Assembly (NCBI GenBank): GCA_046581755.1
Contig: JAYGFR010000057.1
Location: 1 to 41,284 of the forward strand
Source: Nitrospinota bacterium
GTDB lineage: Bacteria > UBA8248
DNA: 41,284 bases
Direction: 5' to 3'
Shown: one piece after another, positions 26,370-41,284 of the stretch
Numbering within the stretch: the stretch's first letter is position 1
Layout of the letters: every line of letters starts with the position of its first letter
The notes under the pieces: model-generated
Database searches by the model: none
Told to the model about the DNA's origin: nothing
The model's input: only the letters and a program-made list of their open reading frames with translations
Made by a program: the position numbers and the translations under genes

Positions 26370-29207
26370 TCAAACCGACTCGTCCGGGGCCTCCCCCTGC
26401 GGAAACGCGGACAGACGGGCCTTCCGCCGCTCAATCGTCTTGAGCCATCCCTCCAGGGATTTCACGACCTCGCTGGAATGCATCGGAGAGGATGACACCG
26501 CTTCTTCCATAACTCCATCGGAGGGCTGGAGCAAGTCTCCTTCCCCGCTTTCGGAGATTCGGGCTTCGAGCTCCTGGATTTGCAAACCCAGCCAGACCGA
26601 ATCCGGGTCCGCCACCTCCGCCTTCTGGCATACGTCCAGCGCCCGGGCAAAATTTTCTTCCAGAACATATATTTCGATAATACCCCGCAACATCTCCTCG
26701 GCGGGATTCGCCGTCCGAGCATCCGGCGCCCCGTTTTGGGCATCTCCGGCCGCTTCAGAGACACCCGCCGCAGCCGGTGGTCCGGACGTCTCCACAGGCT
26801 CTTGTCCAGGCTCTTCTCCCGCCGCCCCCTCGGGCAAGGACGGGGAAACCTCCGCCGGGCCGTCTTCCTCTTCCTCGAAAACGACTGATTCGAGAAATAA
26901 ATCCACCCCGGAGGTGACCGCTTCCGCTTCTTCAGCCGGCTCCGCCCCGACTTCCGCCAAAGAAGCATCCGCTTCTGGAGCTTCCGCCGCCGGGGGGGAC
27001 ACTCCCAACTCCTCTTCAAACAAGGCGTCCAGGTCGCCGCCATCCCCGCCCATTGCGTCTACCGCGTCCACCGCCGGCAAATCAACCCCGGCATCTTCCT
27101 CATCCGCCACAGGAGCTTCCACTTCTGGAGCTTCCGCCACCGGGGGGGGCACTCCCAACTCCTCTTCAAACATGGCGTCCAGGTCGCCGTCATCCCTGCC
27201 CGATGCGTCTACCGCATCCACCGCATCCGCCGCCGGCAAATCAACTCCGGCATCTTCCTCATCCGCCACAGAGGCATCCGCCTCTGGAGCTTCCGCCGCC
27301 GGGGGGGGCACTCCCAACTCCTCTTCAAACATGGCGTCCAGGTCGCCGCCATCCCCGCCCAATGCGTCCGCCGCGTCCGCCCCCGGCAAATCAACCCCGG
27401 CATCTTCCTCGTCCGCCACAGAGGCATCCGCCTCTGGAGCTTCCGCCGCCGGGGGGGACTCCCCCAACTCCTCTTCAAACAAGGCGTCCAGGTCGCCGCC
27501 ATCCCCGCCCAATGCGTCTACCGCCTCCACCGCGTCCGCCGCCGGCAAATCAACCCCGGCATCTTCCCCATCCACCACAGAGGCATCCGCCTCTGGAGCT
27601 TCCGCCGCCGGGGGGGATTCTCCCAACTCCTCAGCAAACATGGCGTCCAGGCCATCCGGGTCCGGAACCGCTGCGGTATCCACGGTATCCACGGTATCTT
27701 CGGCAACGGGTGCTTCCGCCGCCGGGGTTTCCACCGCGGAGGCCGGGCTTTCGGAGAGATCCTCAAAAAGGGAATCCAGATCTTCGAAGGCCCCGCCCTC
27801 ACCGGCGGGCGCTTCCTCTAGGCCCTCTTCGGAAACCGCTTCCGCCGCCCCGGGCTCGCCTTCCGCATCAACCACCGCAGGAGCTTCCGCCGCCGGGGGG
27901 GGCTCTCCCATGGCTTGGGCAAGCATGGCGTCCAGCTCATCCCCATCCCCGGCCGGTTCGGCCACTTCATCCGAGGGCGGAGTTTCCTCCTCGGCATCCG
28001 CTGTTGAAATTCCCGCCTCAGGGGCAACGGTCTTTTCCGGCTCGTCCGCGAAAAGTGCGTCGAGATCGTCCATATCTCCGCCGCCCGAATCGGCGGCCTG
28101 ATCCGCAGCCGGGGTTTCTGCCGCCGGGGCCGTAGCGGGGGGAGACGCCGGCTCGTCCGCGAAAAGTGCGTCAAGATCGTCCAAATCTCCGCCGCCCGAA
28201 TCGGCGGCCTGATCCGCAGCCGGGGCTTTTGCCGCAGGGGCCACAGCGGGGGGAGACGCCGGCTCGTCCGCGAAAAGTGCGTCCAGGTCATCGACTTCTC
28301 CGCCGCCCGAATCGGCGGCCTGATCCGCAGCCGGGGCTTCTGCCGCGGGGGCCGCAGCGGGAGCCGTCTCCTCCGGCTCGTCCCCGAAAAGTGCGTCCAG
28401 GTCATCGACTTCTCCGCCCGCCTCCGGTTCCGCCGCGCTGGCCGGTTCGGCCGCTTCTGGAGCGAGAGCTTCGGCCCCGGTATCTCCGCCTGCCTCATCC
28501 AGGATCGAATCGAAATCCTCGATTTCGGACGCATCGCCGGATTCCACGGCCCCGGCGGGCGCTTCCCCGACTTGGCCAATCTGTTCCCGAAGGTCGGTGA
28601 TTTTTTCGAGGTAATCCATGTTCGCCGGATCTTCCTCGGCGAGGCTTTGGTAGACTTCGAGCGCCTTATCCGGGTGTCCCTGCGATATATAGAGTTCGGC
28701 GAGGGAGGGAGTGGGCACGGCATCGCCCGTCTCCTCCAGCGGGGCCTCATCCGCAAGAGCCGCCCCGGAAGCGGCGGAGGCCGCCCCAGGCGCTCCAAAG
28801 GTCCCTTCGAGAGCGGCGGCGGCCGCCTCGTCCTGGATATCGAACATTCCGATGGCCACCTGGGCCCGGCGAGCTCCCGCCTCATCGCCCAACTTTCGGC
28901 AACAATCCAAGAGAAGCCGCTGGGCGGCGAGGTTCCACGGTACGCGGGCAATGGCTTTTTCCAACTCACCGGCCGCATCGCTCACCTGCTCTTTCGCCAG
29001 ATAGATTTCGCCGAGAAGAACGCGGGGAGCCGCATAGGCCGAGTGATGCTGAAGCCCACCCGTGAGCAGGCCGATGGCCTTGTCGGCCTCTCCCTTTTCC
29101 CAGATCAGGCTGGCGAGCGGAAAAAACGCGGGAGAAACAGGGTCGTCCTCGAGAACGGCCTCGAGGACCTGAATTCTGGATTCTGGATCTCTGGGTCGAG
29201 AAGCCAT
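26370..29207 (-). CDS. TPR-containing protein with a long acidic Ala/Pro-rich repeat region
   Basis: N-terminal TPR-like helices (AFFPLASL...RVLLGEIYL; PSLAELYISQG), about 550 aa of D/E/A/P-rich sequence with recurring DLDALF, and C-terminal helices (LEGWLKTIERRK). No signal peptide or transmembrane segment seen. Confidence 0.85.
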   Translation of the reverse strand: MASRPRDPESRIQVLEAVLEDDPVSPAFFPLASLIWEKGEADKAIGLLTGGLQHHSAYAAPRVLLGEIYLAKEQVSDAAGELEKAIARVPWNLAAQRLLLDCCRKLGDEAGARRAQVAIGMFDIQDEAAAAALEGTFGAPGAASAASGAALADEAPLEETGDAVPTPSLAELYISQGHPDKALEVYQSLAEEDPANMDYLEKITDLREQIGQVGEAPAGAVESGDASEIEDFDSILDEAGGDTGAEALAPEAAEPASAAEPEAGGEVDDLDALFGDEPEETAPAAAPAAEAPAADQAADSGGGEVDDLDALFADEPASPPAVAPAAKAPAADQAADSGGGDLDDLDALFADEPASPPATAPAAETPAADQAADSGGGDMDDLDALFADEPEKTVAPEAGISTADAEEETPPSDEVAEPAGDGDELDAMLAQAMGEPPPAAEAPAVVDAEGEPGAAEAVSEEGLEEAPAGEGGAFEDLDSLFEDLSESPASAVETPAAEAPVAEDTVDTVDTAAVPDPDGLDAMFAEELGESPPAAEAPEADASVVDGEDAGVDLPAADAVEAVDALGGDGGDLDALFEEELGESPPAAEAPEADASVADEEDAGVDLPGADAADALGGDGGDLDAMFEEELGVPPPAAEAPEADASVADEEDAGVDLPAADAVDAVDASGRDDGDLDAMFEEELGVPPPVAEAPEVEAPVADEEDAGVDLPAVDAVDAMGGDGGDLDALFEEELGVSPPAAEAPEADASLAEVGAEPAEEAEAVTSGVDLFLESVVFEEEEDGPAEVSPSLPEGAAGEEPGQEPVETSGPPAAAGVSEAAGDAQNGAPDARTANPAEEMLRGIIEIYVLEENFARALDVCQKAEVADPDSVWLGLQIQELEARISESGEGDLLQPSDGVMEEAVSSSPMHSSEVVKSLEGWLKTIERRKARLSAFPQGEAPDESV
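26960..27660. repeat. Intragenic tandem repeat family 1 (5 units, alternating 150/159 bp)
   Basis: The anchor CTCCCAACTCCTC (or a one-base variant) recurs at 27002, 27152, 27311, 27461 and 27620. Confidence 0.9.
28039..28420. repeat. Intragenic tandem repeat family 2 (about 3.5 units of 111-114 bp)
   Basis: The anchor GGCTCGTCC(G/C)CGAAAAGTGCGTC recurs at 28039, 28150, 28261 and 28375. Confidence 0.9.
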
Positions 29208-29324: not shown

Positions 29325-29369
29325 CCCCGGAATCATTTCACCGGAACCTCTCGGGAGAAACGCTCACAC

Positions 29370-31499
29370 ATGTTTCAGATTGGCATCGACGCCGGAGGCA
29401 CCTTCACGGATTTTTGGGTGACCGGGGCGGACCCCGGCAGCGGCTCTTCCATCGAGGGGTTGATGCACAAAATCCCTTCCACACCGGGGGACCCGGCCCG
29501 GGCCGTCATTCAGGGCATCGGGGAAATCGCCTCCTCCCGGGGGCTTTCCGCCGGAGATTTCCTGAAGGAGACCGGGCTCATCGTTCACGGAACCACCGTG
29601 GCGACCAACGCCGTGCTCACCGGAAACGGAGCCAAGGCCGGCCTCATCACCACGCAGGGCTTCCGAGACATTCTCCAGATGCGGCGGGGATGGAGGGAGG
29701 AGTTTTTCAACAACAAGAGGCCACTCCCGGCGCCCCTCATCCGCCGGGCCCTGCGGCGAACGGTGGCGGGCCGGCTGGACGAAACCGGCGCCGAACTCGA
29801 ACCCCTCGACGAGGCGGGCGTCCGCGAGGAGGCCCTTCGCCTCAAGGCCGAGGGCGTGGAGTCGGTCGTCCTCTGCTTTATTCACGCCTGGGCCAATTCC
29901 GATCACGAAAGACGGGCGGCGGAGATTGTCCACGAGGTTTTCCCCGAGGCGTTCCTGACCGTCTCCTCCGAACTCCTTCCGCAAATCAGGCTCTACGAAC
30001 GCGTGAGCACCTGTGCCTTCAACGCCTACGTCGGGCCCATCATTCAAAAATATCTAGAAAAGCTGGACACCTCGCTCCGGGAGGCCGGTTTCGCGGGCGC
30101 CCTGCTCATCATGGGATCGCACGGCGGGGTGATGACGGCCCCGGTGGCCGCGCGCCGGGCGGCTTCATCCCTCCTCTCGGGCCCCGCCGCCGCCCCGGTC
30201 GCGGCATCCCGGGCGGCCGCCCCCTACGGAATCACGGACTACATCGTCACTGACATGGGCGGGACGAGCTACGATGTGGCGCTCATCCAGGGCGGCGAGC
30301 CCCTGGTCACCCAGGAAAACTGGCTCGGCGGCAGGCGCATCGCTCTCCCCTCGCTCGACATCCACACGCTGGGCGCGGGGGGAGGGAGCATCGCCTGGTG
30401 CGACCAGGGGGGGATCCTCCACGTCGGCCCCCGGAGCGCGGGGGCGAATCCCGGCCCCGCCTGCTACGGCCAGGGGGGGGAAGAGCCCACTGCCACGGAC
30501 GCCTGCCTGGTGCTCGGCTACCTGGACCCGGACTATTTCCTGGGAGGAAAACTCCGCCTCCGCCGCCGGGAAGCCGAAGAGGCGATTCGGCGCGCCGTGG
30601 CCGAGCCGATGGGCCTGTCGGTGGAAGAAGCGGCTCTTGGCATCTACGAGGTCATCTGCACTCAGATGGCGGCCGGAATCCGGGAGGTCACCGTCCGCAG
30701 GGGGCTCGATCCGCGCGATTTTCTCATGCTCGCCGCGGGCGGGGCGGGGCCGCTTCACGCCGGAACCATCGCGCGCGATCTGGATATTCCCCTGGTCATG
30801 GTCCCGGGAGATTCCGCCGTATTTTGCGCCGCCGGAATGCTGATCTCCGATCTCAAGCACGACCTCGCCGTGAGCTGGCGCGCGGGGGCCTCGGACCTCG
30901 ACCCGCGCGAACTCTCGGCGCGCTTTCGGACGCTTCGAGAGGAGTGCCGCGCGATTTTGGCCGAGCAGCGCGTCCCCGGGGATCGGATGGCCTTCGAGCC
31001 GGCGGTGGATATGCGCTACATCGGCCAGCATCACGAAGTCACCGTTCCCCTTCCGTCCGGGTCCATCGATGCCCCCGACATCGGGGATATTCTCGGACGG
31101 TTTCATGCGTGCCACGACGCCCTCTACGGGTACGCCACCGAAGAGATGCCCGCCGAATGCATCACCCTCCGGATGAGCGGACGGGGGCGAACGGAACGGA
31201 CGGCCGTCTCCCCTCCGCCCATCGGCGTCGCGCTCCCCCCGTCACCGCCCCGTGCGAAGCGGCGGATATGGTTGCCCGGCACGCCGGAACCCGTTCAAGC
31301 GGATATATACCGGGGAGAGGCGCTGGTGCCGGGCATGACGATCGCAGGACCCGCCCTCGTCGAGCGGCCGAACACGACCATCCTTGTGCCGGGAGATCAT
31401 GAACTCGCCCGTGGCGCATTCGGCCACAGCTTCATCTGGCCGGCAGCCCGGGCGGATGAAATGCGCGCCAGATTCATGCCGACCGGGGAGGCCACCTGA
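29370..31499 (+). CDS. hyuA: Hydantoinase A / 5-oxoprolinase family, ATP-binding subunit
   Basis: IGIDAGGTFTD, HGTTVATNA, GLITTQGFRD, SGPAA, DMGGTSYD, GAGGGSIA, VGPRSAGANPGPACYG, DMRY.GQ. Start reset to ATG 29370. Confidence 0.92.
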   Translation: MFQIGIDAGGTFTDFWVTGADPGSGSSIEGLMHKIPSTPGDPARAVIQGIGEIASSRGLSAGDFLKETGLIVHGTTVATNAVLTGNGAKAGLITTQGFRDILQMRRGWREEFFNNKRPLPAPLIRRALRRTVAGRLDETGAELEPLDEAGVREEALRLKAEGVESVVLCFIHAWANSDHERRAAEIVHEVFPEAFLTVSSELLPQIRLYERVSTCAFNAYVGPIIQKYLEKLDTSLREAGFAGALLIMGSHGGVMTAPVAARRAASSLLSGPAAAPVAASRAAAPYGITDYIVTDMGGTSYDVALIQGGEPLVTQENWLGGRRIALPSLDIHTLGAGGGSIAWCDQGGILHVGPRSAGANPGPACYGQGGEEPTATDACLVLGYLDPDYFLGGKLRLRRREAEEAIRRAVAEPMGLSVEEAALGIYEVICTQMAAGIREVTVRRGLDPRDFLMLAAGGAGPLHAGTIARDLDIPLVMVPGDSAVFCAAGMLISDLKHDLAVSWRAGASDLDPRELSARFRTLREECRAILAEQRVPGDRMAFEPAVDMRYIGQHHEVTVPLPSGSIDAPDIGDILGRFHACHDALYGYATEEMPAECITLRMSGRGRTERTAVSPPPIGVALPPSPPRAKRRIWLPGTPEPVQADIYRGEALVPGMTIAGPALVERPNTTILVPGDHELARGAFGHSFIWPAARADEMRARFMPTGEAT

Positions 31500-31501
31500 A
31501 T

Positions 31502-33256
31502 ATGAGTGCCATCCCCCGCCCCCCGGGCATCGATCCCATCCTCGCCTCCGTTCTCCAGCGGCGCCTCCGCTCCATCACCGAGGAGATGGCGCTCACCCTG
31601 CTCCACACCACCCGATCGCCCATTCTTTCCGAGGGCAGGGACTTCGCCACCGGGGTTTACTGGGCCAACGGCGACATGCTCGAGCAGACCGAATACACCG
31701 CTCTCCTGGGGTTCGCCCTCCAACCATCGCTCAAGGCGTGCATCGAATATTTCAAGGACGATATCCGGCCCGGAGACGTGATTTTTCACAACGACGTTTA
31801 CCTCGGCGGCAACCAGATCAACGACCTGGGCGTGTTCAAGCCCATCTTCTTCGAGGATGAACTTGTCGCCTGGGCCGCCTGTAAGGCCCACCAGGCGGAC
31901 CTGGGCGGGGGCGCCCCGGGTGGATACAACCCCGAGGCAACCGAAATCTGGCACGAGGGGCTGCGCGTCCCGCCGCTCAAAATGTGGGAGGCCGGGAAGC
32001 TGCGGCGCGACGTGTGGGACATGATTTTCGCCAACACCCGCCTCGACATCGTGGCCGAGGACGCCAAGGCCTGCGCGGGCTCCTGCAACGTGGGCGAGCG
32101 GCGGGTTCTCGAAGTGCTTGGCCGCTACGGGCGCGAGGCGTTCGACCGTCACATGGCCTACATCATGGACGGGGCCGAGCGGATCATGCGCGGCGAGATC
32201 GCCGCCATGCCGGACGGCGTCTACCGGGGCGAGTCGTTCCTGGCCAACGACGGATTTCAGGAGGGCGTCCGCCACAAGGTGGTGTGCACCCTCACCGTCG
32301 ATGGCGATGCGATCGCGTTCGACTACACCGGCTCGGCGGGCCCCACGCCGGGCTACGCGAACGCCCCCCTCCACGCCTCGACGAGCGGCCTGATGATCGC
32401 CATCTTGATGAACGTCGATCCCGAGATTCCGCACAACGCCGGCATGCTCCGGCCCATCGAAATGATCTTTCCCGAAAACTCGATGCTCAACGCCGAGTTT
32501 CCCCACGCCACCAGCTACGGCAACCACCTCACCCACCAGATTTGGGAGGCCGCCGTGAAGGCGCTCGCCCAGGCCATTCCCCACCGGGTGACGGCGGGAT
32601 GGAACAAGGTCTACTGGGGCATGTCCAGCGGCTACGACAGACGCAGCGGCCGCCGCTTCGTGGATTTTTGCCTCTTCGCGATGAAGGGGGGCTCGGGCGC
32701 GACCGAGGGCCTCGACGGGCTGGATCACATCGGCACCGTCATGACCGGAGGGGCGATGACGGCCCAGGACCCCGAGATGCACGAAATCCAGACCCCTCAC
32801 CGGATCCGCCATTTCGAATACGAGATCGACTCGGCCGGGCCGGGGCGCTGGCGCGGCGGGCTCGGGATTCGCTCGGAATGGCAGCTCCTCGGCCGCGATG
32901 CGAAGATCATCATGTTCGGCCAGCAGACCGAGCCCGGCGAGGAGCCTTTCGGTCTGTTCGGGGGACGGGCCGCCGGTCTCAACACCGCTAAACTCACCTA
33001 CCCCGGCGGGCGCGAGTACATCTCAAAGGGTCACGAAATTATCCCGGACGCCGAGGGCGTCGTCATCGAGCAGGTGGCCTCGGGCGGCGGCGGGTACGGC
33101 GACCCGAGGCTCCGGCCCGCCGAGATCGTGCGAGAGGAGGTGCGCGATGAGATCGTCTCCGCCGAATCGGCGCGGCGCGACTATGGGGTGGCGCTCGATC
33201 CGGAAACCCTCGAGATCGACGAGGCCGAAACCGCCCGCCTGCGGAAGGGAGTTTGA
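31502..33256 (+). CDS. hyuB: Hydantoinase B / oxoprolinase family subunit
   Basis: EEM...L..T.RS, GDVIFHNDVYLGG, HQADLGG..PG, EGLRVPP, DSAGPGRWRGG, SGGGGYGDP. Confidence 0.92.
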   Translation: MSAIPRPPGIDPILASVLQRRLRSITEEMALTLLHTTRSPILSEGRDFATGVYWANGDMLEQTEYTALLGFALQPSLKACIEYFKDDIRPGDVIFHNDVYLGGNQINDLGVFKPIFFEDELVAWAACKAHQADLGGGAPGGYNPEATEIWHEGLRVPPLKMWEAGKLRRDVWDMIFANTRLDIVAEDAKACAGSCNVGERRVLEVLGRYGREAFDRHMAYIMDGAERIMRGEIAAMPDGVYRGESFLANDGFQEGVRHKVVCTLTVDGDAIAFDYTGSAGPTPGYANAPLHASTSGLMIAILMNVDPEIPHNAGMLRPIEMIFPENSMLNAEFPHATSYGNHLTHQIWEAAVKALAQAIPHRVTAGWNKVYWGMSSGYDRRSGRRFVDFCLFAMKGGSGATEGLDGLDHIGTVMTGGAMTAQDPEMHEIQTPHRIRHFEYEIDSAGPGRWRGGLGIRSEWQLLGRDAKIIMFGQQTEPGEEPFGLFGGRAAGLNTAKLTYPGGREYISKGHEIIPDAEGVVIEQVASGGGGYGDPRLRPAEIVREEVRDEIVSAESARRDYGVALDPETLEIDEAETARLRKGV

Positions 33257-33301
33257 TGCCGTCCGGTGATTTTTTCGATTCCGGGTGGAATCAAGATGGA
33301 T

Positions 33302-33736
33302 TCAGGAAAAATCGGAAGGTCCGCCGTACAGGCGGTGCTCGACCATGATTCAGAGGTCCATGACGACCGCGAGACCGACCTCCCGCGCCCGGCGAGCGGC
33401 GGCCTCGTCGATGACCCCTTTTTGAAGCCATACCGCCCGCGCCCCCGCGGCGAGGGCCTCATCCACCACCCCGCCGACACGGTCCGAACGCCGGAATACG
33501 TTCACCACCTCGGGAGGCTCCGGCAGGGCGGCGAGACGCGGATAACACGTTTCGCCCAAGAGCGATTCATGGCCGGGGTTGACGGGAACGATCTCGTAGC
33601 CCGCCTTCTTCATGTAGGCGCTCACATAGTGGCTGGGCCGATGCTCCTTGGGGGATAGGCCGACCACCGCAATCCGGCGGAAATCCCGGAGCATCGCGCG
33701 GATCGTCTCCGGGTCCTTGAAGGAGGAATCATTCAC
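33302..33736 (-). CDS. CoA-binding protein (YccU-like), predicted selenoprotein (U129)
   Basis: IAVVGLS.KEHRPS, Y.IVPVNP, VVNVFRRS, AVWLQ.G. In-frame TGA at 33352-33350 reads GLAVVMDL-U-IMVEHRLYGG, matching the family C-terminus 'VVMDRC..EH'. GTG start overlaps the upstream TGA and the next stop is at 33302. Confidence 0.85.
33318..33344 (-). promoter_or_regulatory. Putative bacterial SECIS element for the TGA at 33352-33350
   Basis: mRNA UGA AUCAU GGU CGAGCA CCGCC UGUAC GGCGG ACC. It has a 5-bp GC upper stem, a loop starting 20 nt after UGA with G-U at loop positions 2-3, and a lower GGU/ACC pairing. Confidence 0.65.
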
Positions 33737-34557
33737 CGCTTCACCGCCGCCGGCCGGTCCCGCTCTTCCCACTCCTTCAGATGTCCCCGGAGCGATTCCG
33801 GATCGCCGGCGCCCTCGAGAAAGCGGGACAGGGCGTCTTCGTCGGTATCGTAAAGGGGGAAACACGAGGCCGGAGCCGCCCCTCCGGGCGCGTGAACCAC
33901 CGCACGCACCAGGAAGGCCGGAATGTTCGTCCGCTCGGGTTTTTCCTCGAAAAAATCCGTCTCCACGATGCGCTCGGCGGTGAGGATGACGCCCTCGGCG
34001 GCGCGCGACATGAGAACGTCCTCGAACGTGCCGCCGTCGATTCGCGCGTTGCCCCCGGCGTCGGCGTGCTGCACGTGGAGGAGGGCCCAGTCCGGCCGGA
34101 TGCGCGGGATCATGTAAACCTTCTTTCCGGTATACGGGTCCTCCGCCTTCCGGAACCCCGTCAGCGCGGGCGTGTCGCTTCCCTCCATCCCGGCCACCGG
34201 CTGGCTTGGCAAGCCGTAGGCCGAGGCGCGAAGACCCGCGATCACGGTGTAGCAGACATGCTCGACGGCCCGGACGGTTCCGCCCTCGACGCCCCGGCGG
34301 TAGGAGGGCGCCATGCCGAACAGGTTCTCGTAGCCGACGTAGCCCGATCGGACCTCGGCCGCCGCCCCCGCCGCGCAGAGCAGATCGATGTCATAGGCCC
34401 CCGCCGTCTTGACGAGGCAAAGGCCGCGCCTCCCCTGCCGCGCAAGCTCCCGCACGAGGGCGGACGGGGTGCGGCTCAGCGAGTTGCCGCCAAGCGCGAT
34501 CAGCTGGCCATCCTCGATCAGGGCGGCCGCCTCTTGAAGGGAATGAAGTTTACTCAC
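33733..34557 (-). CDS. Family I CoA-transferase-like alpha subunit (GctA/IpdA-like), Cys102 form
   Basis: KLHSLQEAAALIEDG, R.P.AL.REL, DLLCAAG, EHVC, GLRA.AYG.P, DPYTG, PDWA.LHV..AD..GN, HAPGGA.P.SC. 274 aa from GTG 34557, which overlaps the beta stop. Confidence 0.88.
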   Translation of the reverse strand: MSKLHSLQEAAALIEDGQLIALGGNSLSRTPSALVRELARQGRRGLCLVKTAGAYDIDLLCAAGAAAEVRSGYVGYENLFGMAPSYRRGVEGGTVRAVEHVCYTVIAGLRASAYGLPSQPVAGMEGSDTPALTGFRKAEDPYTGKKVYMIPRIRPDWALLHVQHADAGGNARIDGGTFEDVLMSRAAEGVILTAERIVETDFFEEKPERTNIPAFLVRAVVHAPGGAAPASCFPLYDTDEDALSRFLEGAGDPESLRGHLKEWEERDRPAAVKR

Positions 34558-35336
34558 GAAATCTCCTGCCGCTTCACCCGGCGAAGCTCGGGGAATTCGG
34601 AATAGCGGACGCCCTCGGGGTCCACCTCGGCGAGAGCGGCCAGCTCTTCCCCGGTGGGAGGAGGCGTCTCGGGAACACCCCCCGCCCAATCGAGCGGAAA
34701 CCCTGTCCGCCCGGCCACCTCCTCCGCCGTGGCGCCGGGGTGGACGCTCTCCAGTTCGAGGCCGCCCGCGCCCATGGCGAGAACCGCCAGCGGGGTGATC
34801 ACCCGCGTCAGGTTTCCCGTCTGGGTCACGAAATCCACCTTCGGGACGAACGTCCGCCGGTCGTACACCGTGCGCCAGATCACGGTGCGCCGCGCCTGCT
34901 CCATGACGACCGAACCCCCGCCCCCGCCGGGGAGCCGCACCTTGGGGGAGGAAGGTTCTCCGATGTAGCTCATGTTCACGCGTCCCGCCCGGTCGATCTG
35001 GGCGCAGCCCAGAAACATGAGATCCATTCCGCCCCGCGCGAAGAGATCGTAGGCGTCCGCGTTCGAGAATATCGCCGCCGCCCCCTGGCAGAGCACCGGG
35101 TCGTTCGTGCTAAAGGGCAGGCGCTCCGGCTTGGGGTCCACCGAGCCCGCGACCTCGATGAGGACCGCGCGCGGGGCATGGAGTTTTTTCGCCAGGAAAA
35201 TGGCCACCATCGGGAGCGGCGAATTCACGCCGTGAAAAACCCGCTCGCCGTCGCGCACCTCGCGGGCCAGGCAAACGGCCATCTGGTCCGCTGCCGCGCG
35301 GGCGGCATCGGCATCGAATGTTGTTTCTTGCCCCAA
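34554..35336 (-). CDS. Family I CoA-transferase-like beta subunit (GctB-like)
   Basis: AREVRDGE.VF.G, P.VA..LAK..HAP, DLMFLGCAQID..G.VN, VRLPGGGG, FVPKVDFVT, VITPLAV, SVHPG, TGF. Confidence 0.88.
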   Translation of the reverse strand: MGQETTFDADAARAAADQMAVCLAREVRDGERVFHGVNSPLPMVAIFLAKKLHAPRAVLIEVAGSVDPKPERLPFSTNDPVLCQGAAAIFSNADAYDLFARGGMDLMFLGCAQIDRAGRVNMSYIGEPSSPKVRLPGGGGGSVVMEQARRTVIWRTVYDRRTFVPKVDFVTQTGNLTRVITPLAVLAMGAGGLELESVHPGATAEEVAGRTGFPLDWAGGVPETPPPTGEELAALAEVDPEGVRYSEFPELRRVKRQEIS

Positions 35337-35341
35337 TTTCC

Positions 35342-36166
35342 CTAGCTCCCCGCCGCATCCGGGGCGGAAGCCCGGTCCGCCGAATCGAGATACTCGGCAA
35401 GGCCCTCGGCGGTCCGGGACAGTTCCATGTAGCGGCGAATCCCGGCCTCGTCCACCCCATAGGCGGGGTGGCAGCTACAGGGTCCCGCCCCGCCCGGCGC
35501 GTGGGCGACGGCGGCCACCATGAACCCCGGCACCGCCGTCAGCTCCGGCTCCTCGGCCATGCGCCCTGGAGGGACGATCTCCTCGGCGGTGACGATGACC
35601 CCCTTCGCCGCCCGCGTCATCTCCACGTCGAAATAGCGCGGACCGTAAATCCTCGCGTTCCCCTCGGCGTCGGCTTCATGGACGTGGAGGATCGCCCAGT
35701 CGGGCCGGAGGGCGGGGATGGCGTGCAACCTCTCGCCGGTGTAGGGATCGTCGATGGTCAGGATGCCGCTTCGCTCCGGTATGTCGCTTCCCTTAAAACC
35801 CCGGATGGGCTGAAAGGGAACGCCGTAGGCTGCGGCCCGCAGCCCCGCGAGGATGCTCGCTCAGGCGTGTTCGGTCAGCCCGGCGAGCCCATTTTCGATG
35901 GATTTCCTGTAGTTGGGCGCGAGGCCGTAGCTGGCCTCGAAGGTGACGATGCCGCTCAGAACGCGGCCCAGCGCGCCCGCCGCGCAAAGCAGGTCCGCAT
36001 CGTAGCCCGGCGACGGCTTGATGAGGGTGAGCCCCTTCCTTCCGGCCCGGACGAGCTCGCGCAAAAGAGCCGATGGCGCCCGGTGGAGCAGGCTCCCGCT
36101 CGTGCTGATCGAATCGCCGTCCTTTACCAGCGCCGCGGCCTCGGCCAGCGTGCAAAGTTTGGTCAT
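35342..36166 (-). CDS. Family I CoA-transferase-like alpha subunit, predicted selenoprotein (U102)
   Basis: ORF-track pieces 35861..36166 and 35342..35728 are one frame, broken only by TGA at 35863-35861. Read-through gives 274 aa (…TEHA-U-ASILAGLRAAAYGVPFQPIRGFKGSD…DPYTG…PDWAILHV), collinear without gaps with the Cys102 paralog. Confidence 0.88.
35827..35860 (-). promoter_or_regulatory. Putative bacterial SECIS element for the TGA at 35863-35861
   Basis: mRNA UGA GCGAG-CAUC-CUCGC G GGGCUGC-GGGCC-GCAGCCU. The second hairpin has a G-led loop starting 23 nt after UGA. The equivalent codons of the Cys paralog do not form it. Confidence 0.65.
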
Positions 36167-36311
36167 GATCGAACCCTCGCGGAAAATCTTCCCCGCCGCA
36201 TGGTAGGGGAATCAAAGGAAAATGTCAGGGGGACGCCCACACTACACACGCCCCCGGCGGCGGCATTATTCGAACAAGGGGCGCGGGCGGCCCGCAAACG
36301 GGGCCGGGCCG

Positions 36312-36677
36312 TTAATCCAGAAGGACATCCTCCTCGTCCATCAGCATCAGGTAGGGCTCGCCATATTGCTTCGGATCGTCCAGGCCCCACCCCTCGCCCG
36401 AATCCGCCAGCCTGAGGCGGACCCCCCAATCGCCCCCGAATATCAGGTGCACCTCGACGGCCCCCGAATCGGAGACCGGGACATACTTGGCCGGACAGGG
36501 CGACCCGCCATCCGCGCTGCTCCAGCCGGTCACCTCGTAGATGCCTTCCACCTTTCCCATCTCGGAGATTTTGACCCGCCGGATCGGCACGGGCCTCCGG
36601 CGGGCCTCGTATACCATCATCGGCATGTAGGCGCAGTTTTCGTTTTCCTCCACTTCGAGATAGATGGATTCGGTCAT
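36312..36677 (-). CDS. Hypothetical protein (121 aa, acidic, beta-rich)
   Basis: MTESIYLEVEENENCAYMPMMVYE…GWSS…DSG…GGDWGVRL…GEPYL. ATG lies 2 nt after the Rid stop and the composition is protein-like. Confidence 0.75.
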   Translation of the reverse strand: MTESIYLEVEENENCAYMPMMVYEARRRPVPIRRVKISEMGKVEGIYEVTGWSSADGGSPCPAKYVPVSDSGAVEVHLIFGGDWGVRLRLADSGEGWGLDDPKQYGEPYLMLMDEEDVLLD

Positions 36678-36679
36678 GA

Positions 36680-37105
36680 TCAATCGATCACAGCGACGGC
36701 GTTGATTTCGATCAGGCAGCGCGGGTCGGTGGCGAGCTGGACCACCTGGACGGAGGTCGTTGCCGGTTTGTTCTCCCCGAAAAATTCCGCCCAGACCCGG
36801 TTGAGATCGTCCTGGTCGGTCAGGTCGGTCTGATACCGCGAGACCGCGACCACGTCGGCGAAGGTGGCGCCGACGGCCTCGAGACCCTTTTTCAGATTCT
36901 CGAGCGCGGCGCGCGCCTGCCCCTCCATGTTCTCCGGCATGGCGTCGAACTCCTCGGGGCGGTGGGGGTGGTGATGGTAGACCGGAGCCGCCGTCACGCC
37001 CGCGAAGTAGACCGTCGTCCCGCCCGTCACCTTGATCGCCGGGGCATAGGGCATCCACAGGTCCGGGGCGTCCGGCCAGTGAACGTGTTCGATATTTTTC
37101 GTCAT
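36680..37105 (-). CDS. Rid (YjgF/YER057c/UK114) family protein
   Basis: PYAPAIKV, VYFAG, EGQARAALENL...L...GATFADVV, PATTSVQV..L, LIEINAVAV. ATG 37105 with a GGAGG RBS. Confidence 0.9.
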   Translation of the reverse strand: MTKNIEHVHWPDAPDLWMPYAPAIKVTGGTTVYFAGVTAAPVYHHHPHRPEEFDAMPENMEGQARAALENLKKGLEAVGATFADVVAVSRYQTDLTDQDDLNRVWAEFFGENKPATTSVQVVQLATDPRCLIEINAVAVID

Positions 37106-37184
37106 TTCGGGATTCCTCCGCCACTCGTTAAAAAAATTCGATGAGGTGCACTTCCATTCTACCCGAATAAGGCCCGGCCCTCCC

Positions 37185-37213
37185 GTGCCTCGGCCCGGCC
37201 GAAATGGTATGAT
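37185..37213 (+). promoter_or_regulatory. Putative sigma70 promoter of the SDR cluster
   Basis: GTGCCT-17 nt-TATGAT with an extended -10 TG, resembling the liv promoter candidate. Confidence 0.45.
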
Positions 37214-37256
37214 CCGGCATTCGCTGAATTCCGGTTCATACCAACCGAAGGGATAA

Positions 37257-38024
37257 ATGATGGCGGAAAAAACGCTTGAAGGGAAAAGGGCCGTGGTCAC
37301 GGGCGGCTCGTCGGGAATCGGCGCTGCCATCGCCGTGCGATTCGCCTCGGCGGGGGCGGACATTTGGGTGGCGGGTGGAAGCAGCCGGGAGGGGCTTCAA
37401 AAGTCAATCGACGCCTGCGCCGCGCACGGGGTCAAGGCAGGAGGGGATCTGTACGACCTCTCGACCGGGAGGAACGCCGCCGGCCTTGTGAAGGAGGGCG
37501 CGGAATTTCTCGGCGGCCTCGATATCCTCGTCAATTCGGCGGGCACACGGAACCTGAGCGCGTTCGTGGATATCGAAGACGACGCCATCGATCTCCTGTT
37601 CGAGGTGAACGCCAAGGCGGCGTTTTACGCCTCGCGCGAGGCCGCGCGCATCATGGTCCCCCAGGGGAGCGGAAATATTCTCATGATCGGCTCGGACGCC
37701 GGCGATCAGGGCACGCCCAACTTCTCCCTCTACGGGGTGACCAAGGCGGCCATGCACGCGCTGACCAAGAACCTGGCCATCGAACTGGGACCCTCGGGGC
37801 TGCGCGTCAACTGCATGGCGATGGGGCCCACCCGAAGCGGCCGGGTGAAGGAGCTTTTGGACAACGACCCGGAATTCTACAAGAGCCGGATCAACAAGGT
37901 GCCCATCCGGGATTTCGGCGATCCCGAGGACATCGCCGAGACCGCTCTCTTTATCGTTTCGCCCGCGAACAAATTCATGAGCGGAGCCATCGTCATGATC
38001 GACGGCGGTATCACCGCAGGTTGA
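37257..38024 (+). CDS. Short-chain dehydrogenase/reductase (paralog 1)
   Basis: TGGSSGIG, LVNSAG, GS, YGVTK, DGG. Confidence 0.92.
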   Translation: MMAEKTLEGKRAVVTGGSSGIGAAIAVRFASAGADIWVAGGSSREGLQKSIDACAAHGVKAGGDLYDLSTGRNAAGLVKEGAEFLGGLDILVNSAGTRNLSAFVDIEDDAIDLLFEVNAKAAFYASREAARIMVPQGSGNILMIGSDAGDQGTPNFSLYGVTKAAMHALTKNLAIELGPSGLRVNCMAMGPTRSGRVKELLDNDPEFYKSRINKVPIRDFGDPEDIAETALFIVSPANKFMSGAIVMIDGGITAG

Positions 38025-38042
38025 TTTGCGCAAAAACATCCC

Positions 38043-38807
38043 ATGACGGCTAAAATCCTGACGGGAAAACGCGCCGTCGTCACCGGCGCCTCCTCGGGCA
38101 TGGGGGCGGCCATCGCCCGCCGCTTCGCCGCCGAGGGGGCGGACATTTGGGCCGTGGGCGGAGGCGATGCCGAAGGGCTCAACAAGACCGTCGAGGGCTG
38201 CGCCAAAAGCGGCGTCCGGTCGGGCGGAGCGGGATACGACTTCTCCCGGCCCCGGACGGCGGGAGAGGCCATCCGCGAGGGGGCGGAATTCCTGGGCGGC
38301 CTGGACATCTTGGTAAACTGCGCCAGCGGGCGGAACTTCAAGGCCCTGACCGACCTTTCGGACGCCGATATCGACTTCATGTTCGATCTGAACGCGAAGT
38401 CGTATTTTTTCGCCTCCCGGGAGGCCGCCCGCATCATGGTCCCCCAGGAAAGCGGGCACATCATCATGATGGGCTCGGTCTCGGGCGAGCGGGCCCGGCC
38501 GATGCGCTCGCTATACTGCGCGACGAAGGCGGCGGTCCATTCCCTCACCCGATCCATGGCGCTCGAACTGGGCCCCCTGGGCCTGCGCGTCAACTGCGTC
38601 GCCCCCGGCCTGATCGATAGCGGCCGGGTGAAGAAGATGATGGAGGACGATCCGGACCTTTCCAGGAAGCGGATCGCGGGCATTCCGCTCAGCCGCCTGG
38701 GCGATCCTGGCCAGATCGCCGCCATGGTTCTTTTCATGGTCTCTCCCGAGAACGACTTCATGAACGGCGCCATCGTCCCCGTGGATGGGGGCTCGATGGC
38801 GGGCTAA
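38043..38807 (+). CDS. Short-chain dehydrogenase/reductase (paralog 2)
   Basis: TGASSGMG, LVNCAS, YCATK, VNCVAPG, VDGG. Confidence 0.92.
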   Translation: MTAKILTGKRAVVTGASSGMGAAIARRFAAEGADIWAVGGGDAEGLNKTVEGCAKSGVRSGGAGYDFSRPRTAGEAIREGAEFLGGLDILVNCASGRNFKALTDLSDADIDFMFDLNAKSYFFASREAARIMVPQESGHIIMMGSVSGERARPMRSLYCATKAAVHSLTRSMALELGPLGLRVNCVAPGLIDSGRVKKMMEDDPDLSRKRIAGIPLSRLGDPGQIAAMVLFMVSPENDFMNGAIVPVDGGSMAG

Positions 38808-38842
38808 TTTTCATTTATTTTCATACCGAAAGACGGGAACGC

Positions 38843-39607
38843 ATGGACATCAAAATCCTCGCAGGAAAACGCGCTGTCGTCACCGGAGCCTCATCGGGCA
38901 TGGGCGCGGCCATCGCCCGCCGGTTCGCCGCCGAGGGGGCGGACATCTGGGCCGTGGGAGGAGCGGACGCCGAGGGTCTCAACAAGACCGTCGAGGGCTG
39001 CGCCGAAAGCGGTGTCCAGTCGGGCAGAGCGGGATACGACTTCTCCCGGGCCCGGGCCGCGGAAGACGCCGTCCGGGAAGGGGCGGAATTCCTGGGTGGC
39101 CTCGACATTCTGGTCAACTGCGCCGGGGGCCGGGTGTTCAAGGGAATCTTGGATATCACCGACGATGAGATCGATTTCATGTACGAGCTCAACACGAAAT
39201 CCCTCTTTTATTCTTGCCGGGAGGCGGCGCGCATCATGACTCGCCAAAAAAGCGGGCATATCCTCAACATGGGCTCGGTGGCGGGGATTCAGGCGAGCGC
39301 CGACCGCTCTCTTTACTGCACGACGAAGGCGGCGGTCCATTTGCTCACGAAGTGCCTGGCCCTGGAGCTGGGTCCGCTGGGAATCCAGGTTAACTGCCTG
39401 GCGCCCGGGCTCGTGGACAGCGGCCGGGTGAAGGTGCGCCTGGCGGCAAACCCCGAGTATGCCGAAAAGAGAATCAGCCAGATTCCCGTCCGGCGGCTCG
39501 GCGATCCGGAGAACATCGCATCAACCACGCTCTTCATCGTCTCGCCAGAAAACAAGTTTATGAACGGCGCCATCGTCTCCATCAACGGGGGCGTGAGCGC
39601 GGGATGA
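38843..39607 (+). CDS. Short-chain dehydrogenase/reductase (paralog 3)
   Basis: TGASSGMG, LVNCAG, YCTTK, VNCLAPG. Confidence 0.92.
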   Translation: MDIKILAGKRAVVTGASSGMGAAIARRFAAEGADIWAVGGADAEGLNKTVEGCAESGVQSGRAGYDFSRARAAEDAVREGAEFLGGLDILVNCAGGRVFKGILDITDDEIDFMYELNTKSLFYSCREAARIMTRQKSGHILNMGSVAGIQASADRSLYCTTKAAVHLLTKCLALELGPLGIQVNCLAPGLVDSGRVKVRLAANPEYAEKRISQIPVRRLGDPENIASTTLFIVSPENKFMNGAIVSINGGVSAG

Positions 39608-40968
39608 CCGCGAACCGATACGGAAAGGCCTTCCGGGCGGTTTGGGTTCTTTTGCTTCTTGGCATGCTCCTTGGCGCGGGGGCCTGTATTTCCATTGCAG
39701 GGACCAATGCAGAAGCAGAGCCGGGCGATCGGACGGGGCCGCCCGAAACCCACCGCCTTGTCAGCGTCTCCGTCCCCGGCGATGCTGCCTGGCTATTTTC
39801 GATTAAACCCTTCGCCCGCATGAAAAGCGCCTCGCTCGTCACCCTGACGAAAGAGGGCCGCTTCTTTTCCCTGGAGGTAAAAGGCGGGCGCCTGCGCGCC
39901 AAGCCACTCCCCGCCCTGGCCACTCTTTCCCCGGGCGTTCCTCCGGCCACACTCGATGAAGGGATTATCGCCGGGGGAACCAGGGACGGTTCGTTCCGGG
40001 TGATCGACTTTTTCCGGGAGACCGTCTCGAGCGCCGCAGCGGGTGAAGCGCTATCGCCGCTTTCGAGGCTGGCCACCCTCACAAAATTAGCGGTCGCCAC
40101 CGTGGGGCGGGACGGCTCTCTCATGATCTTTCAAAAATTCGGCGGCAAATGGAAGGAGACCCAGCGCATCCCGGCCCAAGAGGCCAACGCCCTGCCGGAT
40201 GCGCTCCTCGCGGCGGCGGACCTGGACGGAGACGGCACGCGGGAGCTCATCGTTCCGGCCGCGCCGACGTGGCGCTATGCGCACGGGGTATTGAGCGATG
40301 CGATCGAGCCGTCAGAGATCCAGATCTTCAAAATAGCAAGCGGCCGCCTGAACCTCCTGTCCACCTACCGGGCAAAAGGCGATGGCGTTTTCGAGGCCAT
40401 CGGCGCGCTGGACGGAGACCTCGACGGCGACAGGCGGGCGGAAATTCTCGTCACGCGGAGTGACTACGGCTCCGGAGCGGGACACATGGCCCTGGCCCTC
40501 CGGAAGGGGCGCCTTATCCAGAAGGCAAAAGGGGCCACTATCGGCCTGGGAAACCGCTGGTCTCACCTCCTCGGCGCTTTCGATTTGGGCGCGGGCGGCA
40601 AAAGCATCCTCGCCATCGAGACTCCTCATCTGGCGGGCTATCTTCTCGCCCTCGAGATGAAGGGAGGCCGCCTCGCCGAGCGGGCCCGGCGGCCGGGGTT
40701 CACCACCCATTCCATCGGATCGCGGAATGTATGGGAGTTCGCGGTCATCCGACGGGCGGGCGCCGCCGACACCGTGGTTCAGGAAGTGAGCCGTGGCCGG
40801 CTCGCCGCCCTGGCCTTGCGGAAAAACCGCGGGATCATCCGCTGGACGATCCCGCTGGCGGGGCCGGTCCAATCCAACATCGTAGCGGCGGATCTGAACG
40901 GGGACGGCCTGGACGATCTCGCCTTCGCCGGCCCCGGGGGCAAGGTTCACGCGCTCCTCTCCCGGTAG
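39604..40968 (+). CDS. Secreted FG-GAP/VCBS-repeat protein
   Basis: N-terminal hydrophobic signal and three DxDGDG-type Ca-binding loops (ADLDGDGTRE, GDLDGDRRAE, ADLNGDGLDD). ATGA overlap with SDR3. Confidence 0.8.
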   Translation: MTANRYGKAFRAVWVLLLLGMLLGAGACISIAGTNAEAEPGDRTGPPETHRLVSVSVPGDAAWLFSIKPFARMKSASLVTLTKEGRFFSLEVKGGRLRAKPLPALATLSPGVPPATLDEGIIAGGTRDGSFRVIDFFRETVSSAAAGEALSPLSRLATLTKLAVATVGRDGSLMIFQKFGGKWKETQRIPAQEANALPDALLAAADLDGDGTRELIVPAAPTWRYAHGVLSDAIEPSEIQIFKIASGRLNLLSTYRAKGDGVFEAIGALDGDLDGDRRAEILVTRSDYGSGAGHMALALRKGRLIQKAKGATIGLGNRWSHLLGAFDLGAGGKSILAIETPHLAGYLLALEMKGGRLAERARRPGFTTHSIGSRNVWEFAVIRRAGAADTVVQEVSRGRLAALALRKNRGIIRWTIPLAGPVQSNIVAADLNGDGLDDLAFAGPGGKVHALLSR

Positions 40969-41202
40969 ATTCCACTCCCCCCGGGGCGGAACCGCCCTGC
41001 AATTACGGCAAGAATTCAACCTGTGGTCCCGTTTTCCGCCCTCAAGGTGGCTGGGCACTATCGGCCTGAATCCAGGAGACTTGAGCAAAAAAACGCCCTA
41101 AAAAAATAAACATGTAAAAGTGTAAAACCGAACCATCGATACGCCGATACATTCATTAACGGACAAGGAAGCCCGTTGCTCTATTTGAAAGGAGGCAATT
41201 CG

Positions 41203-41284
41203 ATGGCCCTACAATGTTGTGTATGTGAGGATATCCTGATCGAGGCCGTGGAGATGGACAAACTCCACTCTTCGAAAAGAGAAA
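41203..41284 (+). CDS. 5' part of a hypothetical protein (truncated by the window end)
   Basis: AAGGAGG RBS, then MALQCCVCEDILIEAVEMDKLHSSKRE, open to the end of the window. Confidence 0.5.
   Translation, partial: MALQCCVCEDILIEAVEMDKLHSSKRE

Follow-up and report, generated by a model that had tools for sequence, protein, structure and literature searches.

Two apparently uncatalogued selenoprotein families in a four-gene run of a Nitrospinota bacterium, one with selenocysteine at an active-site position of the coenzyme A-transferase fold

We analysed a 41,284-nucleotide stretch of DNA from a Nitrospinota bacterium (contig JAYGFR010000057.1 of assembly GCA_046581755.1; the whole stretch is called the window, and coordinates refer to it unless another contig is named) and found that a minus-strand run of four genes, alpha-1, beta, alpha-2 and D, encodes two real and apparently uncatalogued selenoprotein families. 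Alpha-1 (35342-36166, 274 amino acids) has the PF01144 coenzyme A (CoA)-transferase fold of the Gct/IpdA/AibA type, and the in-frame TGA at its codon 102 (35861-35863), in the column of IpdA Glu105, almost certainly encodes selenocysteine (Sec). Alpha-1 and the adjacent beta subunit (34554-35336, 260 amino acids, TTG start) are shown, or nearly shown, to be a CoA-transferase-fold enzyme without the transferase glutamate and with Sec at the Glu105 site of IpdAB. D (33302-33736, 144 amino acids) is a YccU-like single-domain CoA-binding protein (PF13380) whose own in-frame TGA, codon 129 at 33350-33352, lies at the DRC cysteine of its family and is very probably read as Sec as well. Between beta and D lies alpha-2 (33733-34557), an old Cys102 paralogue of alpha-1 relocated from a locus adjacent to scpAB.

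This layout agrees with an earlier sequence-only reading of the same DNA, which had described four tightly coupled genes, two of them each interrupted by one in-frame TGA opposite a cysteine and followed by a hairpin, and had taken those two for hidden selenoproteins. All frames are exactly as it described, with a 5-nt gap between alpha-1 and beta and GTGA overlaps at the next two junctions. The alpha-1 TGA pairs with the TGC of Cys102 in alpha-2 (34252-34254), and the D TGA pairs with the cysteine of the DRC/NRC motif in PDB 2DUW and 2D59. A hairpin resembling a selenocysteine insertion sequence (SECIS) is present downstream of both, on the minus strand at 35828-35845 in alpha-1 (+16 to +33 past the TGA, with frozen synonymous sites) and at 33321-33335 in D (a 5-bp G+C stem with the loop UGUAC). 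In a Pfam search alpha-1, beta and alpha-2 matched PF01144, and D matched PF13380 as a stand-alone protein over the whole domain and above the gathering score (146 bits). An NCBIfam search gave neither a specific model nor a selenoprotein model for any of the four genes, and an Rfam search of window positions 30000-41284 returned no match.

Homologues with TGA at the alpha-1 codon, one of the checks that the sequence-only reading had named, are abundant. Full-length alpha-1 is present in 18 of 24 other genomes of the source family, and all 19 full-length matches among 41 related genomes have TGA102. A genome collection contributed 80 loci: all 28 of the family type (a set that overlaps the related genomes) have TGA102, and the remaining 52, mostly betaproteobacterial, divide into 49 with TGA and 3 with Cys. 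A search of 401 Bacillota genomes gave 29 alpha matches, of which 11 contain one TGA, always at column 102, and the alpha-1 TGA was found in three phyla overall. The best 120 database matches to alpha-1 have Cys at the site in 118 cases, the other two being fragments that end short of it, and include no U-bearing record. Reads with TGC or TGT, named by the sequence-only reading as a refuting observation, have no counterpart in the contigs covering the TGAs, where neither codon was seen: one DNA run (perhaps the source sample) spans both TGAs with no difference listed, and one RNA contig crosses the alpha-1 TGA with its sequence unchanged. Selection was not relaxed past the alpha-1 TGA, with a ratio of nonsynonymous to synonymous substitution (dN/dS) between the source genome and four congeners of 0.05-0.21 upstream and 0.13-0.16 downstream, the latter indicating purifying selection.

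The hairpin is specific to the TGA forms. A hairpin rule, formulated after inspection of the data, was satisfied by 32/32, 46/47 and 5/5 TGA rows, compared to only 1/28 and 3/22 Cys rows and 3.9% of 110,119 TGA triplets in the source genome; the genome's own selD fails the rule, its loop beginning one base early. Nearly a single codon is used at each of codons 108-113 in 34 family TGA rows and at each of codons 108-112 in 49 betaproteobacterial TGA rows, with equally frozen codons elsewhere in the genes at only 2/93 and 2/99 comparable positions, respectively, while 25 Cys paralogues with the identical peptide vary freely in codon use over the hairpin region. We conclude that alpha-1 is, with near certainty, a selenoprotein decoded via an in-gene hairpin. 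The family and betaproteobacterial groups build different hairpins on the same 5' arm, and the two changes and two different hairpins suggest that Sec arose twice in alpha subunits. An additional Sec alpha clade (L275-L277) has the motif DHT-U-PG and its own hairpin, with no disulfide reductase nearby. Four loci titled Streptomyces, Streptomycetaceae or Chitinophaga (L075, L081, L117 and L121) group with the betaproteobacterial Sec type in both genes and neighbours, suggesting that these record titles are mislabelled.

The source genome, 96.5% complete, also has the full machinery for Sec insertion: selA and selB on contig C136, selD (itself with a TGA) on C268 and a canonical 97-nt tRNA-Sec on C264. 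None of the four refuting observations that the sequence-only reading had named was made. The portion of BSepDB covered here places UBA8248, the GTDB lineage of the source bacterium, among the bacteria richest in selenoproteins. We found selA in 40/46 carrier genomes of the betaproteobacterial type (in a search covering 50 of the 52 loci) versus 43/151 genomes in an order-wide sample that includes one unpublished genome, G112, and in 11/11 Bacillota carriers. That the TGAs are instead nonsense mutations in pseudogenes, assembly errors or codons read as Trp or Cys would fit the 6 of 46 betaproteobacterial-type carriers and 1 of 4 carriers of the order sample in which selA was unmatched, as well as the mere 15 codons of D that follow its TGA. 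We regard this as very improbable, given the conservation of the TGA across three phyla, the TGA-specific hairpins, the unchanged dN/dS past the alpha-1 TGA, the enrichment of selA in carriers, the canonical tRNA-Sec and the use of TGA to terminate ordinary genes in the source genome.

For D, codon 129 is TGA in the source genome and in 4/4 same-genus genomes; other matches in the family have no stop codon, and the source genome holds a second, Cys-bearing copy on C362. The synonymous freeze in D was not significant (5 rows, with 18/56 other codons equally frozen), and codons 130-140 show no amino-acid change among the same-genus rows. We consider D very likely to be a selenoprotein decoded via an in-gene hairpin. 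Of the 8 matches in a metagenome pattern scan for D-type genes with the TGA, four belong to this lineage, and the other four (L211, L215, L216 and L218) stand alone in unrelated settings without any transferase gene, that of L218 following scpB and a pseudouridine synthase gene. Because the L216 gene has no hairpin, some of these stand-alone TGAs may be true stops. Bootstrap values of the D tree had not settled, and a single-sequence fold of D (mean predicted local distance difference test score, pLDDT, of 50.6, with the terminal stop read as a residue) was not used.

We then compared the active site of alpha-1/beta with those of characterised relatives. Beta has Val62 at the transferase-glutamate site, the column of GctB Glu54 and AibB Cys56 (residues whose roles are covered in parts of PMC5380842 and PMC7756340), and its adjoining Glu61 is not conserved; the third transferase pair of the source genome, on C88, retains the beta glutamate and is of the canonical type. 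The structure model of alpha-1 (pLDDT 96) best matched AibA, IpdA and GctA, with template modelling scores of 0.89-0.90 against IpdA structures, and its residue 102, at the start of a helix, lies opposite the Glu in the IpdA motif REMDEG; the structure 6COJ, titled E105A, has Ala in place of this Glu. Across 152 rows, alpha column 102 holds Glu in 60 and Cys in 38. Pairs with the beta glutamate had Cys, Sec or Glu at alpha-102 in 0/12 rows of a first set and 0/9 rows of the Bacillota set, compared to 17/22 and 15/17 rows for pairs without it (5 and 1 rows without a readable beta column were dropped, and two first-set rows are the same locus). The beta glutamate and these alpha residues thus exclude each other, and the enzyme lacks the defining feature of a family I CoA-transferase of the GctAB type: both subunits have the PF01144 fold, and the catalytic beta Glu is missing. 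The IpdAB pair is likewise without a beta glutamate according to the part of PMC5380842 covered; its Glu at alpha 105 is replaced here by Sec or Cys, and the neighbourhood scans revealed no steroid-catabolic genes. Cys56 of AibB is also absent, although this is a weak test because an AibB Cys56Val variant is reported to be still active (PMC7756340, in part). Judged by sequence, the chemistry of the enzyme has most likely relocated to alpha residue 102.

The Sec/Cys site, together with the disulfide reducers found beside Cys and Sec forms, leads us to propose that alpha-1/beta may catalyse reductive C-S cleavage of a thioether acyl-CoA via an enzyme Se-S intermediate, a reaction and substrate class that we hold at even chances. 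The predicted substrates are of the form R-S-CH2-CO-SCoA. The Sec102 selenolate would attack the thioether sulfur, the thioester enolate would depart and be protonated to acetyl-CoA, and the enzyme would remain as a mixed Se-S-R species until reset by a thiol and a disulfide-reducing partner, for which HdrABC, CoA-disulfide reductase or an AhpD-like CxxC protein are candidates in relatives. In the source genus D might serve the resolving step, which is the weakest part of the proposal. The proposed step resembles those of 2-ketopropyl-coenzyme M oxidoreductase/carboxylase and glycine reductase, in which a thiolate or selenolate splits a thioether or selenoether beside a carbonyl, leaving a mixed disulfide for a reductase.

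Neighbouring genes in Bacillota point in this direction. We took 27 of the 29 alpha matches with 8-kb flanks (11 Sec, 16 other) and found a disulfide reducer at 8/11 Sec loci (7 HdrABC-like and 1 CoA-disulfide-reductase-rhodanese), versus an Hdr or CoA-disulfide reductase at 0/16 of the others. A canonical Glu-type transferase pair shares the run with the Sec pair at 3 of 5 reducer-bearing Sec loci checked, so activation appears to be a task apart from the Sec step. A major facilitator superfamily (MFS) transporter is frequent at Bacillota loci, and at loci L267-L274 the Sec alpha/beta genes lie next to HdrCBA-like genes, commonly accompanied by an MFS transporter, a regulator of the sigma-54 type and a canonical CoA-transferase pair; possibly these are operons for Hdr-coupled organosulfur fermentation. 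Within the source family an AhpD-like CxxC gene is adjacent at 24/28 loci, missing only at three loci of the source genus and on one cut contig; the source genome retains the orthologue on C118. Betaproteobacterial Sec loci often carry genes for CaiB, a crotonase, a cysteine-dioxygenase-like cupin and an adenylosuccinate-lyase-like protein, in a neighbourhood clustering whose composition filter loses some real genes.

Cys102 relatives occur in two further settings. The first is a group of coenzyme M epoxide clusters, in Nocardioides JS614, Xanthobacter Py2 and Mycolicibacterium NBB4, whose pairs (L225, L226 and L227) bear Cys102 and lack the beta glutamate; for the cluster reductases of JS614 and Py2 the best score, under the cut-off, is that for CoA-disulfide reductase. 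Parts of PMC11507031 and PMC8727900 assign these pairs CoA transfer to malonate without biochemical proof, and part of PMC11507031 describes the coenzyme M-dependent alkene and vinyl chloride pathway as confirmed in only a few steps. A Cys102 relative from Acetoanaerobium noterae, which falls in the same supported clade as the alphas of the window, lies in a microcompartment locus (L233, NZ_CP154629.1 763000-795000) for methylthioribose, with a Cys-type alpha/beta pair, shell genes, the methylthioribose kinase MtnK and isomerase MtnA, a class II aldolase, an aldehyde dehydrogenase of the acylating kind, a phosphotransacylase, a CoA-disulfide reductase and a sugar ABC (ATP-binding cassette) transporter; MtnA and the aldolase were predicted once the kinase was seen, and both were then found. 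The coenzyme M epoxide and methylthioribose pathways would, we presume, both arrive at R-S-CH2-CO-SCoA. The covered part of the microcompartment catalogue PMC8217296 has nothing on methylthio compounds, CoA-transferases or the L233 locus.

Several observations weigh against reductive C-S cleavage. At 3/11 Bacillota Sec loci no Hdr or CoA-disulfide reductase lies in the 8-kb flanks; the 8 reducer-bearing loci share the motif EGS-U-TA and are kin rather than independent cases, and the Hdr markers were derived from two of them. Neither reducer was found within 5 kb at any of the 80 family and betaproteobacterial loci, and searches of the source genome gave no match for MtnK and no CoA-disulfide reductase above the cut-off. 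The enzymes of the coenzyme M clusters fall into a Cys clade of their own (41-46% identity), and Cys-type loci of Xanthobacter sp., Bacillus sp., Caballeronia and G237 have only an acyl-CoA ligase gene, with or without CaiB and crotonase genes. The methylthioribose locus could presumably process 5-deoxyribose without C-S cleavage, and the role of IpdA Glu105 enters the comparison as our own assumption.

Two other chemistries compete with the one we favour. In an IpdAB-like enzyme, Sec would act as a base or form an acyl-selenoester while a C-C bond of an acyl-CoA is cut by hydrolysis or a retro-Claisen reaction, without redox chemistry, and both proteins would still be selenoproteins. The position of Sec in the IpdA Glu105 column, the missing beta glutamate of IpdAB itself (PMC5380842, in part) and the many loci with only acyl-CoA ligase, CaiB and crotonase genes all fit, but the presence of disulfide reducers next to Cys and Sec forms, and their absence next to forms with Glu, Asn or His, would be left unexplained, and we consider this alternative unlikely, if still a serious one. 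The enzyme could also have remained a CoA- or acyl-transferase in which Sec or Cys replaces glutamate as the covalent acyl carrier, consistent with its fold, its CoA-transferase annotation and the coincidence of beta Glu loss with gain of Cys, Sec or Glu at alpha-102. This we think improbable: three Bacillota operons have a Glu-type transferase beside the Sec pair and other loci have an acyl-CoA ligase or CaiB, which would make a second transferase redundant, and both characterised Glu-less relatives are non-transferases (PMC5380842 and PMC7756340, each in part). The sequence-only reading had suggested selenol chemistry of two sorts; its Se-S exchange is close to the Se-S intermediate we favour, while its acyl-selenoester relay is possible and ranks second.

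The sequence-only reading had further proposed that the products of the run probably assemble into a single alpha(Sec)-beta-alpha(Cys)-CoA-binding complex, and here the comparative data run the other way. In most family genomes there are two separate loci, one for alpha-1 and beta and one for alpha-2 and another beta subunit, beta-prime, the latter locus adjoining scpAB and a PfkB kinase gene; the four-gene order was seen in the source genus (5 genomes) and one relative, G009, and not at the other family loci examined, and D-type genes stand alone in other lineages. Beta-prime (C9:7541-8278 in the source genome) is intact at the old scpAB locus, without an upstream alpha, in 5/6 four-gene genomes and keeps its diagnostic residues in 98/105 cells across those 5 genomes, and relocated alpha-2 genes keep their own type in 97/120 diagnostic cells. 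A complex in which both alphas share beta and D docks, which would be compatible with any chemistry, is favoured by the tight junctions and the common order in the source genome, 4/4 same-genus genomes and G009, by the 18/120 diagnostic cells in which relocated alpha-2 is of the alpha-1 type, and by G004, a 97% complete four-gene genome in which beta-prime was not matched, so that alpha-2 could there pair with the adjacent beta. Given the intact beta-prime, the restricted layout and the 4/8 metagenome D-type TGA genes without any transferase gene, we think such an assembly quite unlikely. Alpha-2 most likely still works with the beta-prime encoded elsewhere, and the run is better described as a lineage-specific gathering of the genes of two related enzymes plus D, doubtful as a complex. 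Alpha-1 and alpha-2 are old paralogues by their sequences (about 50% identical), and the alpha tree, which is a quick tree, led us to discard a recent local duplication of alpha-1 as the origin of alpha-2. No alpha-2 relatives were found in a search of viral contigs.

At the place that alpha-2 usually holds beside the now orphan beta-prime (C9:6786-8278, L177) there is an unrelated 136-amino-acid open reading frame (ORF), in a region of lower G+C content (about 0.53) with synonymous sites near saturation versus congeners. In several relatives (L155-L166) the alpha-2/beta-prime locus is followed by genes for the PfkB kinase, amidohydrolases and nitrile hydratase-like alpha and beta-C proteins. 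Upstream of the four-gene run in the window, a weak promoter-like site lies at 36228-36200 (2 such sites in the region versus 0.6 expected), and a scan of the run and its surroundings gave no convincing terminator. RNA contigs from two studies overlap parts of all four genes, strandless and without information on level or co-transcription. Also upstream are an ORF of 120 amino acids at 36312-36674 that matches nothing in Pfam, a RidA-like gene at 36680-37105 and a tandem of three plus-strand short-chain dehydrogenase genes (within 36312-39607), the RidA-like and dehydrogenase genes being kept in congeners. Downstream, in the window and in congeners alike, are convergent hydantoinase/caprolactamase-like A and B genes (29361-33256), and beyond them in the window lies a gene for a 945-amino-acid tetratricopeptide repeat protein (26370-29207) with a long, acidic, repetitive middle of repeated DDLDALF-type blocks.

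Neither Sec family appears in the 119-family selenoprotein table of PMC13188914, and neither was found in the part of the BSepDB supplement searched (Table S2 perhaps not covered). Term searches of parts of PMC12013277, PMC13326102 and PMC13745706 showed no CoA entry among selenoproteins, and literature searches, with subscription journals mostly outside their scope, gave no paper on either Sec form. Redox proteins of the thioredoxin-like or metal-binding kind make up nearly the whole catalogue of selenoproteins, so Sec at an active-site position of the CoA-transferase fold in three phyla, in a gene that gene callers split in two, adds a family to the catalogue, as does the YccU-like Sec form. 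The new point open to experiment, on which we are evenly divided, is whether a Cys/Sec branch of this fold cleaves C-S bonds reductively; the Sec/Cys site and the recurring reducer neighbours define a concrete reaction that is testable in cultured Cys-bearing relatives. More tentatively, and with the balance somewhat against it, a widespread and misannotated branch of the fold may have swapped Glu chemistry for Cys or Sec attack at sulfur, acting as a general thioether acyl-CoA C-S lyase that supplies two-carbon release from coenzyme M when ethene and vinyl chloride are assimilated, a step of the methylthioribose microcompartment and Hdr-coupled organosulfur fermentation in Bacillota, with D resolving the Se-S species in the marine source genus, which would give the YccU-like family its first function. 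If the cleavage reaction is right, it would account for the 'CoA-transferase' genes of coenzyme M-dependent alkene and vinyl chloride degradation and would point to unrecognised organosulfur catabolism in marine and anaerobic bacteria.

Among known systems, the best sequence and structure match is AibA/AibB, the 3-methylglutaconyl-CoA decarboxylase (PDB 5MZW-5N03), which is also a non-transferase of the Gct fold; AibB has Cys56 at the glutamate site where Val stands here, and AibA has Gly at column 102. IpdAB, the COCHEA-CoA ring-cleaving hydrolase (PDB 6CO6, 6CO9, 6COJ and 6CON), shares the fold, the absent beta glutamate and a reactive residue in the same alpha column, but that residue is Glu instead of Sec or Cys, identity is about 30%, steroid genes are not nearby here, and retro-Claisen hydrolysis contrasts with the reductive C-S cleavage proposed for the window enzyme. 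GctAB (glutaconate CoA-transferase, family I, PDB 1POI), the source of the label that databases put on the window proteins, has the fold and the alpha-beta gene order in common with them and differs in its catalytic beta Glu54. The 'CoA-transferase' pairs of the coenzyme M ethene/epoxide clusters in JS614, Py2 and NBB4 resemble the window enzyme in Cys102, the missing beta Glu and a disulfide-reductase-like neighbour, and differ in belonging to the separate clade noted above. D shares the whole domain and the DRC-type Cys column with the single-domain PF13380 proteins (YccU; PDB 2DUW, 2D59 and 1IUK), from which it differs by having Sec for Cys and by being an extra paralogue alongside the genome's Cys copy. 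Finally, the C-S step proposed for alpha-1/beta would work like those of 2-ketopropyl-coenzyme M oxidoreductase/carboxylase and glycine reductase; these have unrelated folds, and the window enzyme, with no flavin domain, is a member of neither group.

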